Below, piece after piece: positions 48,437 through 53,644 of a DNA stretch of 53,644 nucleotides (position 1 is its first letter; every line of letters starts with the position of its first letter). The DNA comes from an uncultured bacterium (GTDB lineage Bacteria > JAGOEH01). The DNA lies in the NCBI GenBank assembly GCA_964632485.1, contig CAZWDO010000024.1:1-53644 (forward strand). Direction: 5' to 3'. The notes under the pieces are model-generated. The model worked only from the letters and a program-made list of their open reading frames with translations, searched no databases and was not told the origin of the DNA. A program made the translations under genes and the position numbers.

Positions 48437-48538
48437 ATGATTCGTAGTGAACCAATCATGCAAGAATTAGCATGTCAACGGGGGATGAGAAAGACATATT
48501 TTTCAATGCAATTTCAGAGGGGTGAGGGATGTGACTAA
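48437..48538 (+). CDS. Putative 33-aa small protein MIRSEPIMQELACQRGMRKTYFSMQFQRGEGCD
   Basis: GGAGG 6 nt upstream of the ATG; lies downstream of the sigma54-like motif. Confidence 0.35.
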   Translation: MIRSEPIMQELACQRGMRKTYFSMQFQRGEGCD

Positions 48539-48625
48539 TTATGTTGTCCGGTGCGAAAAAGGATGGTGTTGAAATGAGGGTTAATTATGAAAGTGAATTG
48601 TAAAAATGAAGAGAGGCGGTTTGAA

Positions 48626-48922
48626 ATGAATAAAGAGGTTAGATCCACTTTGATTTATTTATTTATAGTAGTTGTCGAGAGCGTTTTATTAATCATACCG
48701 ACGGGATGGGTATTGACGCATAGTAATATTTTTATTTCTAATAGCAATAATCCGAATGGTGTTTATGTCGATTCAAAAGGGGGATACCATGACCCGCAAG
48801 TTGAAGAAAAATATGGTTTAAAAAAGGATAAACCCATTCAGCCTATTAAACCCATCAACGCTGGTTATGATCCAAATCTGAGTGTTTTAACGGATGTAGT
48901 GAAATATAATAATGTGGATTGA
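48626..48922 (+). CDS. Hypothetical single-TM protein
   Basis: ORF with an N-terminal hydrophobic helix; GAGG upstream. Confidence 0.5.
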   Translation: MNKEVRSTLIYLFIVVVESVLLIIPTGWVLTHSNIFISNSNNPNGVYVDSKGGYHDPQVEEKYGLKKDKPIQPIKPINAGYDPNLSVLTDVVKYNNVD

Positions 48923-49331
48923 AACGTATTTTTATCAGGATTTCGCTAATGACTGATAACACCTGATAAAAACTGATTGTTGAGGCTTTTGAATTGGTTT
49001 TAGCTCTATGTCTTACAATTAATCGCGCGGTGGATAGATTCGACCCCACCCCACCGCTTGCGCAACTCATTGAAGCTATTTAAATTGACTTTGTTTTTTA
49101 ATGGAAGCATCCGAGTTAGTTATGTTGATATTGATAAATATTTAGACGCGTCAAAAGTTACCGCAATCATATAGATTGTCCAAAATAACGCTATACAGAA
49201 GGCTGGTGGGGACGCCTCACCGGCTTTTTTTATTCTTACTTAAAGTTCTACGTAGCAAAATAAAGATTGCACCAATGCAATTAAAAGCAATCCATCAAGG
49301 CAACAAAGTAGAAATTGATGAAAAATTCAGC

Positions 49332-49360
49332 TTGACATTTTTTTTTAAATATGTTATATT
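49332..49360 (+). promoter_or_regulatory. Sigma70-type promoter upstream of tRNA-Arg
   Basis: TTGACA-17 bp-TATATT with extended TG. Confidence 0.55.
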
Positions 49361-49599
49361 AGAGCTATGAATTACAACAAGAGATGGAATACAACAAATT
49401 ACCTGTCGTCTAATAAAGATTTGACCAAATAATGACCAAAGCAGATGGAAACAATGGAAGAGAAAAATTCAGCCAACTCATTGAATGGAATAAAGGTATA
49501 ATACTTTAATAATTTTGGTCATTTGTTTGCTCAGTATCAAATTTATTGGTTGCGCTTTGTCACGGATTGTGTTGGCGGAGAGCAAGTTAAATACCATTA

Positions 49600-49673
49600 G
49601 CGCCTGTAGCTCATTTGGATAGAGCGTCGGACTTCGAATCCGCAGGTGGGGGGTTCGAATCCCTCCAGGCGCG
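49600..49673 (+). tRNA. tRNA-Arg (anticodon TCG); CCA not encoded
   Basis: Acceptor stem GCGCCTG/CAGGCGC, D arm GCTC-ATTTGGATA-GAGC, anticodon loop CT-TCG-AA, T loop TTCGAAT. Confidence 0.95.
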
Positions 49674-50304
49674 TTCCGGTCAGCGCTGCCATGATCAGAA
49701 TCGGCCTGAGATGGGCCTTGTCCCCAATACAATTTTCCAACTTGGCTGTTAGTAAAAAATTAAAAAATGACTTGACATTCAAAATGGAATTGTTTTTTTT
49801 TTAATAAAATCTATAGTAAGCAAAAGTAGAATGATACATTGACCATGCGATAGCATTGTATAGTAATCAACATGGATTTTCACAAACTGAAATAACCGTA
49901 ATAGCGCTTTGATTAAGTTGATTAAATCACATTGTATTGTACTGCTTCAGATGAAGATGCAAAATTCACCCGCGGCTGTTGAACTAACGTAATTTCAGCA
50001 GCGCCTCGGTAATATTTTTTCCATCGGGCGGAAATACGAAAGCATTTTTGAGTAATTATTTATTTTTTTGATTGACTTTTTATTGAGAATTACTTAACAT
50101 GCATATTGAAAAATGTGTGTCACCAATATCTATCCGGGGTGATAACAGCCGTTTGATGGGCAAATTTATAGAATTCTACCAGGAAACTCCTTTGCTTTCT
50201 TTATTAGTACACCTGATCCCGCTGATGAACTGCGGCATGTTCCCGACACTGCGCACCGTAGAACATGCCAATGAAACCAATCTTTTCGAGACGGCTCATC
50301 ATGC

Positions 50305-50580
50305 CGCCCCAAGAAATATCTTTTTGAAGGATAAGATGGAGAAAAGTATTCCCCAACAAGTGTTGTTAATATTTTGAAGAAAGCATCATTAAAAGCTGGC
50401 ATTCGTAAAATTGTTACACCCCACATGTTGCGCCATAGTTTTGCAACGCGCCTACTGGAACAAGGAACTGATTTAAGGTATATTCAAGAATTATTAGGCC
50501 ATGAAAGCTCAAAAACGACAGAGATATATACTCATGTTTCCAAAAAAGCCATCAATAAGATCAAAAATCCGATAGATTAG
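50305..50580 (+). pseudogene. 5'-truncated tyrosine recombinase with an internal nonsense codon
   Basis: [19 protein letters not shown]...[25 protein letters not shown]....[11 protein letters not shown] at 50332-50334; no recognisable N-terminal half upstream. Confidence 0.9.
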
Positions 50581-50626
50581 TTTTTTGACTAAAAGGAGTA
50601 GAAATGATAAAAGAAAAATATAAACA

Positions 50627-50691
50627 ATTATTCTTATCCCTCCAATTTGGCTGTATAAGAACAATAACTATACACAGACGTTGTGTGGCAT
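50627..50691 (+). other. attI-like primary recombination site (inferred)
   Basis: Inverted repeat ATTATTCTTAT (50627-50637) / ATAAGAACAAT (50655-50665) around CCAATTTGG, then the first core C-GTT-GTGTGG-CAT at 50679-50691 with no attC-like arm upstream. Confidence 0.55.
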
Positions 50692-50946
50692 ATAAACAAA
50701 CTACCAATGGGAAATATTTTATTAAATAGAATTAGAAAAACAAAGGAGGAATAAATATAACAAACTAAAATAAGTACGAATTTTATCTGACAATTGAGAT
50801 TTTCTTTTTTATTCTTTCAGTTATTATTTTCGTTTTTGCTGATGGATTAAAACGATGGTATAGCAAAGGTTTCTTTTTAATTATGGGAGTGAGTAGTTAT
50901 AATATGATTATCAAAAACAAAACAATACTTATTAATTGCCAACTAC

Positions 50947-51354
50947 ATGTATTTTAACATTAAAATGAAACAAGACAATATAGGAACTAAACATGATAAA
51001 TATGCCCCTTATTGGGCTGCAACACTCGTTGTACTTGTAATATTAGGATTGTCAACAATTTGGATTGACTTGGGAAATTTCTGGAAAGGCTATGTGTTAG
51101 ATATGACTGGACCAGCTTGGAATTATATTTTCTTTAGAGGTCTGAATACAGCATATTCGGACAATGCCTGGAGACGCTTTTTTACTCCAAACAGAACCTT
51201 AGCAATATTTATAACAGTATGTATTGGAATTGAAACAATGCAGTACTTTAAAATCTATAATTCGACCTTTGACTTGTGGGATTTGCTCGCTTATATCTCA
51301 ATACTTGTTCCACTATATTTAATTGATTGTGGATTGAATAAAAAGGACAAATGA
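50947..51354 (+). CDS. Cassette 1: membrane protein (DUF2809/VanZ-like)
   Basis: Hydrophobic helices and an E..QY...TFD..DLLAY motif; stop 4 nt before the inverse core. Confidence 0.7.
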   Translation: MYFNIKMKQDNIGTKHDKYAPYWAATLVVLVILGLSTIWIDLGNFWKGYVLDMTGPAWNYIFFRGLNTAYSDNAWRRFFTPNRTLAIFITVCIGIETMQYFKIYNSTFDLWDLLAYISILVPLYLIDCGLNKKDK

Positions 51355-51358
51355 ATAC

Positions 51359-51498
51359 GCCACACAACATTTTGTATAAGTAATGGCAGGTAAAGTACTA
51401 AATATCAAGTTTTGTAGCCCATTCAAACTGCGTAGCGGTTTGACAAGAAAGTACCACGCAATCTGCCACTACTCATACAATTTACCGTTCAGTGCAAT
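51359..51498 (+). repeat. attC-like site 1
   Basis: GCCACACAAC; arms TTGTATAAGTAATGGCAG (51372-51389) / CTGCCACTACTCATACAA (51463-51480); GTT at 51487. Confidence 0.85.
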
Positions 51499-51619
51499 CC
51501 GCTCCGCTTCTTGCACTGAACGCGCGGGCGGTTGGCGCGGTGCAGCCGCAAAGCGGACTGCACCGAACAAACCGGTTAACGCAATAGGGTGTAACCCGAC
51601 TGCGCCAACCGCCCGCGCG
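51488..51619 (+). mobile_element. Cassette 2: 132-bp gene-less GC-rich cassette with a perfect-stem attC-like site (51511-51630)
   Basis: GTTCAGTGCAA (51487-51497) / TTGCACTGAAC (51511-51521); perfect 20-bp inverted repeat 51519-51538 / 51602-51621. Confidence 0.75.
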
Positions 51620-51669
51620 TTGTGCCGCATGCTAAGAAAACAGAGTATCACATAAAAATAGGAGGAATA

Positions 51670-52215
51670 ATGAAAATTACATTGATTATTATAATTGCGA
51701 TTTTAGTAATATTTGCGATTGCATTTATTTACTATGGAGGGTTGATTAAAGTAAACTGTCGGATTGAGAAACAAGGAGGCGAAAAACTGGTTTATAAACA
51801 AATGACTGGTGATTATGCAAAAAGTGCAAAACTAATGGATGAGATTTACTATTCATTACTTAATAACTATGCTATTGATACCTACAAAGGGTTTGGCATT
51901 TACTATGACAACCCGAAATTAGTGGAAAAAAGCAAGTTGCGTTCAGAAATTGGTTGTATTGTCGAAGATAAGGACAGTTCCAAATTTACACAGATTGCTG
52001 AAGGGTTAAGTACAAAAACATTTCCAGAAAGGTCATATATAGTTGCCGAATTCCCAAGTAAAGGGAAATTATCCATTTTGTTTGGCATAATGAAAGTTTA
52101 TCCTGCAATTGAAAAATTTGTGGAAAATAATGGGTATAAGAATGAAGGTTCTGTAATGGAAATATACGATGTCCCAAATAAGAAAATAGTTTATAGAAAA
52201 GAAATAATTGAGTAA
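51670..52215 (+). CDS. Cassette 3 gene A: membrane-anchored GyrI-like small-molecule-binding domain protein
   Basis: N-terminal TM helix; GDY, FGIYYDNP...LRSEIGC, KVYP and MEIY; GGAGG ribosome-binding site. Confidence 0.75.
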   Translation: MKITLIIIIAILVIFAIAFIYYGGLIKVNCRIEKQGGEKLVYKQMTGDYAKSAKLMDEIYYSLLNNYAIDTYKGFGIYYDNPKLVEKSKLRSEIGCIVEDKDSSKFTQIAEGLSTKTFPERSYIVAEFPSKGKLSILFGIMKVYPAIEKFVENNGYKNEGSVMEIYDVPNKKIVYRKEIIE

Positions 52216-52220
52216 ATTGC

Positions 52221-53103
52221 ATGGATACAGTTGTTAGTGAAAATAATATAACAGAAATAATCTGCACAAGTGCACTGAATAAATTAAAGAAAAAAATTCC
52301 TTATGGTTGGGATTTGAATATATACAGGGGGTGCAGTCATAATTGCAAATATTGTTATGCGATTTATTCTCACGAATTTATAGGAGAACAAGACTTTTCT
52401 AAAGTTTTTGCCAAGACAAATGTTGCTGAACAGCTTGATAAAGAATTAAGTAATCCAAAATGGAATAGAGAAATTATTAATATTGGTGGTGTTACAGATA
52501 GTTACCAAATAGCTGAGGAGAAAATGAAAATTATGCCTCAAGTTTTGAAGGTTTTAATTAAACATAAAACACCAGCTATCATTTCAACCAAATCAGATTT
52601 AATTCTTCGAGATTTTGACTTAATTGCTGAATTGTCAAAACTTACTTATGTTAATGTTGCTTCAACAATAACGACAATGAACGAAGATGACCGTAAAAAG
52701 ATTGAGCCTTATGGTAGCCCGAGTATACAGAGGTTTAATATGTTGAAAGAGTTTAGAAAAACAAATGCCTCTGTTGGATTACATACAATGCCAATAATTC
52801 CCTGCATAACAGATAGTTATTCAAACATTGAAAGTTTATGTTCAGAAGCAAGGGCTTCAAACGTTCATTATATGCTACCTGGTACTTTGTATTTGCGAGG
52901 AGCAGGTCAAGATATTCTTTGAATTTATAAAAGACCATTATCCAGATAAGTACGAGAATATGAAAATTCTATATAAAACAGGAGGAGCAGATAAATCATA
53001 TAAAGGAAAATTGTATAACGAGATTGTTAATCCATTACGTGAGAAATACGGAATTTCAAATAGCTATATTAAACTATTGAAAGAAAAAATACATAAAGAT
53101 TGA
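52221..53103 (+). pseudogene. Cassette 3 gene B: radical SAM protein (SPL-like), frameshifted near 52900
   Basis: LNIYRGCSHNCKYCYA, GGVTDSYQ and ISTKS; coding continues in another frame (...FFEFIKDHYP...KEKIHKD) to TGA 53103, just before the inverse core. Confidence 0.8.
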
Positions 53104-53113
53104 AAAAGCACGA

Positions 53114-53251
53114 CGGCACAACATCGTATATAAAACATTTGTCAGTCAGTACGTTATCAAGCATTTCAGCCCGTATCAAAAGTAGTTGTAACTTGACAGG
53201 AAAGTGCTTCGAAATGCCAAACGTTTCATATACGTATTCGTTGTAGCTAAT
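53114..53251 (+). repeat. attC-like site 3, homologous to site 1
   Basis: CGGCACAAC; arms CGTATATAAAACATTTGTCA (53125-53144) / TGCCAAACGTTTCATATACG (53215-53234); GTT at 53240. Confidence 0.85.
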
Positions 53252-53344
53252 GCCAAGAAAAGAGTCGTGCGGAGAAAAACAATGCTATTCCCATTAAATA
53301 TGCGGATAATAATTTATATATTTACCGCAAAAAGATAAAAGTTC

Positions 53345-53569
53345 ATGGCAAAATTCATCTATGAATACGACAAATGGCCTGAATTCATGTGGGATGACAA
53401 GAAAATTATTGTGAATTTAGGTAAAGTTCGACATCTACAAGGAAAGATTTTCGGACAGATGAGCGCGCTCGGATTTTCAATAAAAGAAGAAACATTATTA
53501 TCGACTTTAACCCAACTTTTGCAAGTGGCGATTTTATTTAAATTTGTTATAACCGTATATATAATATAG
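53345..53569 (+). pseudogene. Cassette 4: N-terminal fragment of a Fic-family (DUF4172-type) protein
   Basis: IYE...WP.F.WD...L.KVR..QGK..G.M..LGF...E..L.TLT; family resemblance stops near 53513 and no Fic domain follows. Confidence 0.7.
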
Positions 53570-53644
53570 TTTTAAGACTTTTATGTCAAGAAATAGATAT
53601 ATTTTTGACCTAATTGTCAAAAATTAAGTATTTGCTATTCAATA

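Follow-up and report, generated by a model that had tools for sequence, protein, structure and literature searches.

The right end of a 53,644-nt contig from an uncultured bacterium (GTDB lineage JAGOEH01; GenBank assembly GCA_964632485.1, contig CAZWDO010000024.1) very probably holds the proximal end of an integron-type gene-capture platform, run on folded bottom strands by a tyrosine recombinase that is a sister of the integron integrases (IntI) and lacks their I2 insertion. The window, meaning this whole stretch, is the entire contig C24 of a 66-contig, 4.45-Mb genome that is 98% complete. The platform in the window is decayed: its recombinase gene is truncated, a frameshift affects one cassette gene and a repeat interrupts the fourth cassette. 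Its interest lies in the recombinase family. A broader claim, toward which the evidence tips the balance slightly, is that in Bacteroidota, Ignavibacteriota, Cloacimonadota, Marinimicrobia-type bacteria and rarer phyla complete integron-type platforms are operated, on attC-like hairpins of folded single-stranded DNA, by a large sister clade of IntI without I2; this clade may never have had the insertion, or may have lost it. The features of the region are as follows.

49600-49673, plus strand: tRNA-Arg (TCG), from ARAGORN (Rfam tRNA, 66.1 bits); upstream context, not shown to be part of the system.
50305-50592, plus strand: tyrosine recombinase remnant, located by tblastn with full-length relatives (Pfam PF00589).
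50607-50682, plus strand: attI-like site of type A, a conserved stretch of ~79 nt ending at the first C-GTT core (GTT 50680-50682).
50680-51489, plus strand: cassette 1, with an open reading frame (ORF) at 50947-51354 (135 aa, hydrophobic) and its own site.
51360-51495, minus strand: attC-like site 1, 136 nt, bottom strand modelled as folded.
51487-51621, plus strand: cassette 2, without an ORF; nearly all of it is its own hairpin site, 51513-51627.
51619-53242, plus strand: cassette 3, with a GyrI-like/Cass2-like small-molecule-binding gene (51670-52215) and a radical SAM gene (52221-53103).
53114-53248, minus strand: attC-like site 3, 135 nt.
53240-53506, plus strand: cassette 4, incomplete, holding the N-terminal part of a DUF4172/Fic-type gene (ORF from 53345).
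53507-53644, no strand assigned: dispersed AT-rich repeat that interrupts the Fic/DUF4172 gene of cassette 4 and ends the contig; outside the cassette system.

Four cores mark the cassette boundaries: AGAC-GTT-GTGTGG-CAT with its GTT at 50680, TACC-GTT-CAGTGC-AAT at 51487, GCGC-GTT-GTGCCG-CAT at 51619 and ATTC-GTT-GTAGCT-AAT at 53240. The first three units carry the inverse-core 9-mers CCACACAAC (51360-51368), GCACTGAAC (51513-51521) and CGGCACAAC (53114-53122). Each matches, in exact reverse complement, the core that opens its own unit, the exact runs being 10, 11 and 9 nt, and none of the three is complementary to the core at the right end of its own hairpin. Cassette 1, for example, starts with GTTGTGTGG and has CCACACAAC at 51360, and cassette 2 pairs GTTCAGTGC at 51487 with GCACTGAAC at 51513. 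A preliminary description of this DNA had named the four cores, the three ends consisting of a reverse-complemented 6-mer plus AAC, and their matching to the own start instead of the next core, and every one of these elements was recovered in its place. Complementarity to the own start is what a circle opened between G and TT would leave behind. A three-unit chain of this kind arose in none of 2000 mononucleotide shuffles of 50305-53644, 43 of which reached two units, and even a two-unit chain was absent from 47 equal-sized control windows of real sequence taken from the remainder of the contig.

The units close with imperfect inverted repeats of 115-136 nt (51360-51495, 51513-51627 and 53114-53248). 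The first and third are AT-rich and resemble each other; the middle one differs, with 65% G+C. Folding favours the bottom strand of site 1 (-17.0 versus -14.1 kcal/mol for the top strand) and of site 3 (-18.8, z -2.8, versus -14.5 kcal/mol), and the cassette 2 hairpin reaches -50.4 kcal/mol (z -8.25). Covariance model R1 scores sites 1 and 3 at 132 and 128 bits, respectively, both being training sequences. An Rfam scan of 48500-53644 at E <= 1 returned nothing but the tRNA and a single chance match under threshold, which leaves the hairpins without a known RNA family to account for them.

The recombinase gene ahead of this array survives as a remnant. By tblastn it corresponds to no more than family residues 184-278, or the final 95 codons of a gene of roughly 278 codons, with 88% identity over 95 aa to the relative P0005 and 76% to the recombinase of locus L086. 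An in-frame TAA lies at 50332-50334, and a TAG at 50578-50580 falls three codons ahead of the usual end. The open frame at 50374-50580 is the tail of a tyrosine recombinase (PF00589), and the remnant scores 93.5 bits on the IntI model TIGR02249 versus 90.1 bits on XerD. With the first ~183 codons gone, the box I arginine and lysine are missing; the 5' truncation together with the in-frame TAA leaves the window platform without a working enzyme. The recombinase that the preliminary description put at the head of the array is thus a 5'-truncated pseudogene here, although its family does head arrays elsewhere. Since the platform is decayed, present-day movement of its cassettes would need the intact paralogue on contig C6 in trans.

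That paralogue, a 280-aa recombinase gene at C6:243033-243875, is followed in the same orientation by an attI-like stretch and by GTTGTGTGC with a hydrolase-type cassette ending in GCACACAAC; the array then continues with a 136-nt site and a G+C-rich ORF-less unit to the contig end. Contig C34 has a recombinase gene of the long form, broken, and behind it two cassettes whose ends are exactly complementary, GTTATCGGC...GCCGATAAC and GTTATGCGG...CCGCATAAC. The type A attI-like site of the window contains the inverted repeat TTGTTCTTAT..ATAAGAACAA and has copies, 94% and 93% identical, at C48:1604-1682 and C34:22396-22467, each followed by GTT and then by different DNA. An attI-related sequence occupies the same place after the intact recombinase of L086, and repeated ATAAACG-type motifs fill the attI position in C6 and in loci L017, L047 and L064. 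The covariance model, built from four sites of this genome, added three more own-genome sites, on C30, C43 and C48, with 150 of 1178 first-pass genome candidates scored.

Membership in IntI was judged by NCBIfam model TIGR02249, whose curated cut-off is 265 bits. For the intact C6 copy it gives 231.3 bits, in two stretches with positions 180-239 of the model left without a match, and for P0005 it gives 212.9 bits. Both pass XerA model NF040815 (229.7 and 237.6 bits, cut-off 220), a model whose own name is 'tyrosine recombinase/integron integrase'; on the XerC and XerD models the C6 copy reaches ~194 bits. In a phmmer alignment with VchIntIA (2a3v), query residues 7-199 match chain residues 11-206 and residues 199-271 match 247-319, so that VchIntIA residues 207-246 have no counterpart in the family and the IntI-specific insertion (I2/intI_Cterm, about 35-40 residues near patch III) is absent. 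Similarly, the distance from the GKGxKxR motif to HxxRH is 58 aa in the family and 62 in E. coli XerC versus 99-101 in the three IntIs that have both motifs (IntI1 and phage-borne IntIs). An AlphaFold model (pLDDT 79.7, from an alignment of eight sequences) predicts a plain two-domain fold with no extra helix at the I2 place; its nearest chains are XerA (5hxy), IntI4 (2a3v) and XerA (4a8e), and by sequence the best match among solved structures is Pyrococcus XerA. The catalytic residues R130, K155, H219, R222, H245 and Y254 are invariant in the family alignment. Many array-linked members have an N-terminal extension (extended open frames of 370-554 aa); the closest relatives of the window copy are of the short form.

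Phylogeny places the family beside IntI. In a midpoint-rooted maximum-likelihood tree of 31 rows, which contains no XerA sequences, the family, with 20 rows and support 96/95, stands as a sister next to canonical IntI (6 rows, 99/99) and is not nested inside it, and the branch that joins the two against XerC/D-type proteins has support 100/99. A homologue search with IntI1 yielded only close relatives (74-100% identity), too narrow a set for the tree, and three distant IntIs were therefore taken from phage records. The preliminary description called the recombinase non-IntI; it does fail the IntI cut-off and has no insertion, but as the sister clade of IntI it is not an unrelated enzyme.

Relatives are numerous. 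A scan of one genome per species found at least 475 among 599 pattern matches, and the best 80 loci belong mostly to Bacteroidota, with others from Cloacimonadota, Neomarinimicrobiota, Ignavibacteriota, Spirochaetota, Fermentibacterota and further groups. Linkage between gene and array was scored in loci with at least 1500 nt downstream as an exact signature with a hairpin starting no more than 400 nt past the stop codon. This occurred in 17 of 30 loci versus 70 of 1630 control windows from upstream flanks. Because exact two-unit chains occur by chance in long flanks, only gene-adjacent chains or those of at least three units were counted. Behind the gene, Nibribacter koreensis, Roseivirga spongicola, metagenome-assembled genomes (MAGs) of Ilyomonas, Cyclobacteriaceae and Melioribacteraceae, and others have chains of 3-6 cassettes; Arcicella aurantiaca has a chain of two. 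Site length is uniform inside one array and spans 46-204 nt across arrays. The cassette interpretation had been said to stand or fall with end complementarity in homologous hairpins elsewhere and with their link to this recombinase, and these chains of 2-6 units, adjacent to the gene far above the control rate, bear it out.

In loci L011-L090, very many contigs stop less than ~1 kb downstream of the recombinase gene. Such stops fit assembly breaks in repetitive attC arrays, in which case draft genomes would hide most arrays. One long-read MAG has three copies of recombinase plus attI (L013, L014 and L015) with identical match coordinates and identity and first cassettes of ~4.6-4.9 kb. These copies raised the possibility of a multicopy transposase, which was rejected: behind each copy lie attI and a cassette that closes with a family site. 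On the 15-kb Chondrinema litorale plasmid NZ_CP111070.1 (Cytophagales), a 386-aa family member is followed by a GNAT cassette and then by further cassettes. The attC-like site after the first Chondrinema cassette harbors a group II intron with a reverse transcriptase on the minus strand (L091, 8600-10460). Classical integrons carry group IIC-attC introns, which the Chondrinema intron recalls.

A search with the covariance model, of the kind that the preliminary description had proposed, gave 43 sites in 87 sources, 40 of them distinct and all on the modelled (bottom) strand. In sources that bear the recombinase, 39 of 39 hits lie downstream of the gene in one orientation. Among the 40 distinct sites, pairing holds in 97.2% of cells, and compensatory change is seen in 17 of 21 pairs. 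Covariation gives a score of 0.736, a value attained by 0 of 500 shuffles, whose score is 0.152, and it falls to 0.06-0.12 with slid partners; the alignment was fitted to the structure of the model, which favours that structure. C-GTT is present in 39-40 of the 40 sites. One stem pair is G.T on the modelled strand in all 40, and folding favours the bottom strand in 30 of 40 (Wilcoxon p 0.001). The four sites of this genome have an unequal spacer of 6 nt versus 3 nt. GTTRRRY, which none of the four window cores fits, is found in 5 of the 40; arrays L047 and L064 have textbook GTTAGGC-type cores. The departure from GTTRRRY noted at first therefore holds for the window and not for every relative, and the fit in these five identifies the sites as a variant of attC, not something apart.

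The same cassette also appears in other surroundings. Parts of the window stretch are contained in public runs from 16 studies. Four runs were compared, all as assembled contigs in which the uncovered parts of the stretch are uninformative; RNA runs hold only 5-10% of its words. Three runs, each from a different study (sediment, stromatolite and wastewater), have contigs with cassette 3 at ~96-99% identity. The matches start at 51618, the C before GTT, after DNA unlike that ahead of it in the window, and the contigs diverge into other sequence after 53234-53247, at the next GTT. All carry two extra letters ('AC') after 52904, indicating that the window radical SAM gene bears a 2-bp deletion, which disrupts it near that position. 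More distantly, metagenome contigs L093/L094 have 90.9% homology over exactly 51619-53236, from GTT to site end; in L094 cassette 3 is solitary, lies directly past the stop codon of a 729-aa gene and encodes an intact radical SAM protein of 294 aa. No family recombinase is present on contig L094. These contigs show cassette 3 in different surroundings, not recombination itself.

Both proteins of cassette 3 have recognizable relatives. The first matches Pfam GyrI-like at 47.5 bits and Cass2 at 26.5 bits (cut-off 27). The second matches Radical_SAM at 40.4 bits and the NCBIfam Rv2578c-type radical SAM model at 173.7 bits, short of the 430 required. The two AT-rich site regions have summed contig depths of 100 to 2784 in three of the runs, which makes the site family abundant there, and depths of hundreds to thousands for the attC family occur in wastewater, stromatolite and marine metagenomes. 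A joint inside site 1 that skips 67 letters in one public run was set aside, as it most likely stems from another member of the site family.

Several observations could be accommodated by double-strand recombination of the Xer/dif type, as in the pdif modules of Acinetobacter, the arms being duplex half-sites and the hairpin incidental. The enzyme has Xer architecture, passes the XerA model and finds its nearest structures among XerA proteins, and a conserved G/A difference between the arms could mark two unlike half-sites. This explanation is nevertheless unlikely. The arms covary freely over 18 pairs, and their sequence varies from site to site within one array, as expected if a fold is recognised instead of a fixed duplex sequence. 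Neighbouring sites have only C-GTT in common at the crossover, so a staggered exchange of two strands is improbable; an overlap of 6-8 bp would give mismatched products. Moreover, sites of 46-204 nt in a single orientation are unlike 28-bp dif-like sites, and most sites fold better on the bottom strand.

Less likely still is an ordinary integron, or an attC-site cluster without integron-integrases (CALIN), with cassettes moved by a canonical IntI that is elsewhere or lost and with the Xer-like neighbour as a bystander. The general attC build of the sites, the GTTRRRY cores of L047, L064 and the other fitting sites, and the lack of a working recombinase in the window would agree with this. However, the IntI model finds 14 matches in the 98%-complete genome, all of them under the cut-off, and the two other genomes of the phylum have none over it either (in the three genomes together, nothing was found at E <= 1e-40, a level at which control genomes are equally blank). 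The family forms a well-supported clade beside IntI, the arrays start within 400 nt of the recombinase stop codon in more than half of the loci scored with a conserved attI-like site between, and a bystander would not hold its place and direction from phylum to phylum. By the standard IntI model, the recombinase is not an integron integrase. The parallel cassette-capture platform first proposed is supported by the arrays, their linkage to the gene and the miss by the IntI model; it is less separate than suggested, since its sites are a variant of attC and its enzyme is a sister of IntI. That the hairpins are immobile intergenic repeats (REP/MITE-like or terminators) with accidental end matches is hardly credible: the sites do follow stop codons, as terminators would, and the per-site folding z of the two AT-rich ones is modest (-1.1 to -2.8), but exact own-start complementarity holds in all three units here and in chains of up to six elsewhere, and one cassette recurs in different surroundings with breakpoints at GTT.

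Other points weigh against an integron-type platform run by an I2-less enzyme. The window's own recombinase is dead, and the evidence consists of assembled contigs, in which circles and junction reads cannot show; activity was not observed. Thirteen of the 30 loci lack an exact signature within 400 nt, and the control rate is 4.3%; the misses include chains that start farther off or fail the ungapped hairpin test (e.g. L061, L066 and L073). The window sites have no bulged (extrahelical) bases in the first 18-19 bp of the stem. They do have two G.T wobbles on the bottom strand, one of which is the pair found in every distinct site, and by eye the shorter sites of relatives may have bulges. The sites and loci are interrelated, so the counts overstate independence. 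Two sister genomes of the phylum, both in fragmented assemblies, have attC-like sites (1 and 2 hits), and their recombinase matches are only Xer-like, at 152 bits. In the tree, IntI is represented by few rows, the Xer branches are long and the root is placed at the midpoint. Finally, the I2 helix is held to be necessary for cassette capture by IntI (PMC7790495). The same text describes XerCD integrating folded single-stranded CTX phage DNA (integrative mobile elements exploiting Xer, IMEX), a precedent for action on a hairpin by an enzyme that lacks I2.

For the integron-type platform, the following mechanism is the most likely. The platform would consist of a recombinase gene, an attI site just past its 3' end and co-oriented cassettes, each a promoterless gene unit or an empty unit ending in an attC-like hairpin. 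Cassettes would leave as circles and enter by exchange of a single strand at C-G|TT, the partners being either two hairpins of folded bottom strand (attC x attC) or one such hairpin and attI, and the product would be resolved by replication, as in classical integrons. We infer that the recombinase family performs this movement, that its substrate is the folded bottom strand and that resolution is replicative. The enzyme would be a tyrosine recombinase of ~280 aa from the sister clade of IntI, with Xer-like architecture and without I2. The free covariation of the long arms within one array suggests that the fold is what the enzyme reads, and the strand used in classical integrons is also the one indicated by the bottom-strand wobbles and the energy bias. 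Candidates for replacing I2 in reading the strand may be the unequal spacer (6 versus 3 nt) and the invariant G.T wobble.

Among known systems, the closest are integrons with an inverted integrase, of which the chromosomal integrons of Treponema denticola are an example. In both, the recombinase gene is transcribed toward attI and co-oriented promoterless cassettes, the cassettes end in imperfect inverted repeats with a G|TT crossover, and the inverse core is complementary to the own start. The differences are that the family recombinase lacks the ~40-residue IntI insertion and fails the IntI cut-off, that its core is C-GTT with GTTRRRY in only a minority of sites, and that the window sites have a long unbulged stem with the invariant G.T and the 6/3-nt spacer, whereas extrahelical bases have been described for the integron sites. 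Co-orientation had at first been thought unusual; the cassettes are indeed downstream and co-oriented, but this arrangement is known from the 'inverted integron-integrase group' in the available text of Cury 2016 (PMC4889954).

Further systems share parts of the design. Like integrase-less attC arrays, the window has attC-type sites, no functional integrase and an adjoining integrase pseudogene; unlike in those arrays, the pseudogene is not intI by the IntegronFinder definition. Acinetobacter pdif modules are bounded by short duplex dif-like sites (~28 bp) in alternating orientation that are acted on by host XerC/D. They resemble the family's cassettes as gene modules bounded by Xer-like recombinase sites, and they differ in that the family sites are long hairpins in one orientation behind a dedicated recombinase and attI. 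XerA (PDB 4a8e and 5hxy; NF040815) gives the best sequence and fold matches and has the same length and two-domain build; XerA resolves chromosome dimers at dif, however, whereas the family heads cassette arrays and groups with IntI (in the tree without XerA). The XerCD/CTX system likewise combines an I2-less Xer-type enzyme with a folded single-stranded hairpin, exchange of one strand and replicative resolution, but there a phage genome enters dif by means of host XerC/D, with no dedicated recombinase, attI or cassette array.

The published record, as far as the available parts of the sources go, touches this family at its edges. Cury 2016 defines IntI as PF00589 plus the insertion profile, and, among recombinases without the insertion, mentions no more than four that are 'intermediate between IntI and Xer'; none of the four has as many as three attC sites nearby, and such proteins are judged not to be IntI (PMC4889954). 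In the accessible portion of Smyshlyaev 2021, the insertion is 'not fully conserved' in an integron-like subgroup, and no arrays are described there (PMC8138268). IntegronFinder 2 reports one complete integron in Bacteroidetes proper (PMC9024848), and the available pages of a 2024 preprint place Bacteroidota among the clades earlier found without integrons (10.1101/2024.07.02.601686). A search of the full-text literature, with most subscription journals outside its reach, returned no account of insertion-less integrases heading cassette arrays.

The working rules of integron biology are that IntI is recognised by I2 and that I2 enables capture of folded strands (PMC4889954 and PMC7790495, in the parts available). 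If the broader claim is true, it is something other than I2 that makes cassette capture possible, integrons have a greater age and a far wider spread than is apparent from censuses based on IntI, and the clade represents the 'missing intermediates' for single-strand recombination arising from Xer-like enzymes. The lack of intermediates for I2 and cassette capture is lamented by Escudero and colleagues in the available part of their text (PMC7790495). Censuses by the IntI rule report almost no Bacteroidota integrons (PMC9024848 and 10.1101/2024.07.02.601686, as far as available), and the I2-less family is found in at least 475 places. Should the enzyme work as proposed, there would be a large overlooked reservoir of mobile genes, IntI evolution could be tested with natural instead of engineered proteins, and detection tools would need a second integrase profile and a second attC model.

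Remaining observations concern the host genome and the rest of the window. The species collection holds only three genomes of the host phylum, a sparsely sampled lineage. Two further Xer-like genes are present in the genome, on C15 and C20. The N-terminal piece of the C34 recombinase has a weak HARP match (24.1 bits, cut-off 25). The type A attI copies on C48 and at C34:22.4k have no recombinase gene and lie ~170 nt behind a perfect TTGACA-17-TATAAT promoter (C48:1440-1690; C34:22240-22470). The C48 copy is followed by a serine-hydrolase/beta-lactamase-like cassette with exact end complementarity, and the C34 copy by fragments of restriction-modification genes. The two attI sites may have arisen by deletion or may serve as an expression platform that has no recombinase. 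At C30:8583-8715 and C43:298-430 lie two attC-like sites that are degenerate and nearly identical, share their flanks and have boxes that are no longer AAC/GTT; the former adjoins restriction-modification genes. ORF-less cassettes of ~130 nt with 65% G+C amid ~30% G+C are found both in the window (51487-51627; cassette 2 has a G+C fraction of 0.652 versus about 0.30 in the adjoining cassettes) and at C6:245151-245290, where the boxes read AAT...ATT in place of AAC...GTT, a paired change.

In the window, the final 8 kb of the contig has ~35% G+C versus 40-47% over most of its length. A consensus scan for promoters and terminators was uninformative, with 17 promoter-like sites versus 18.5 expected. 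The cassette 1 ORF has no Pfam or NCBIfam match, and that of cassette 4 matches Pfam DUF4172 at 50.2 bits. The DNA downstream of the tRNA-Arg looks like a graveyard of integrated elements. The 69 nt past the tRNA (49676-49744) resemble portions of other tyrosine integrase genes on C41, C11, C28 and C17, and the 80 nt abutting the recombinase remnant (50221-50300) resemble C2:339458-339537 and C2:343326-343398 and look like the start of a minus-strand ORF family; from these likenesses, the recombinase gene was apparently cut by other insertions. At the other end of the array, the repeat at 53507-53644 has copies that are 75-77% identical at C6:48015-48152 and C16:83958-84099.

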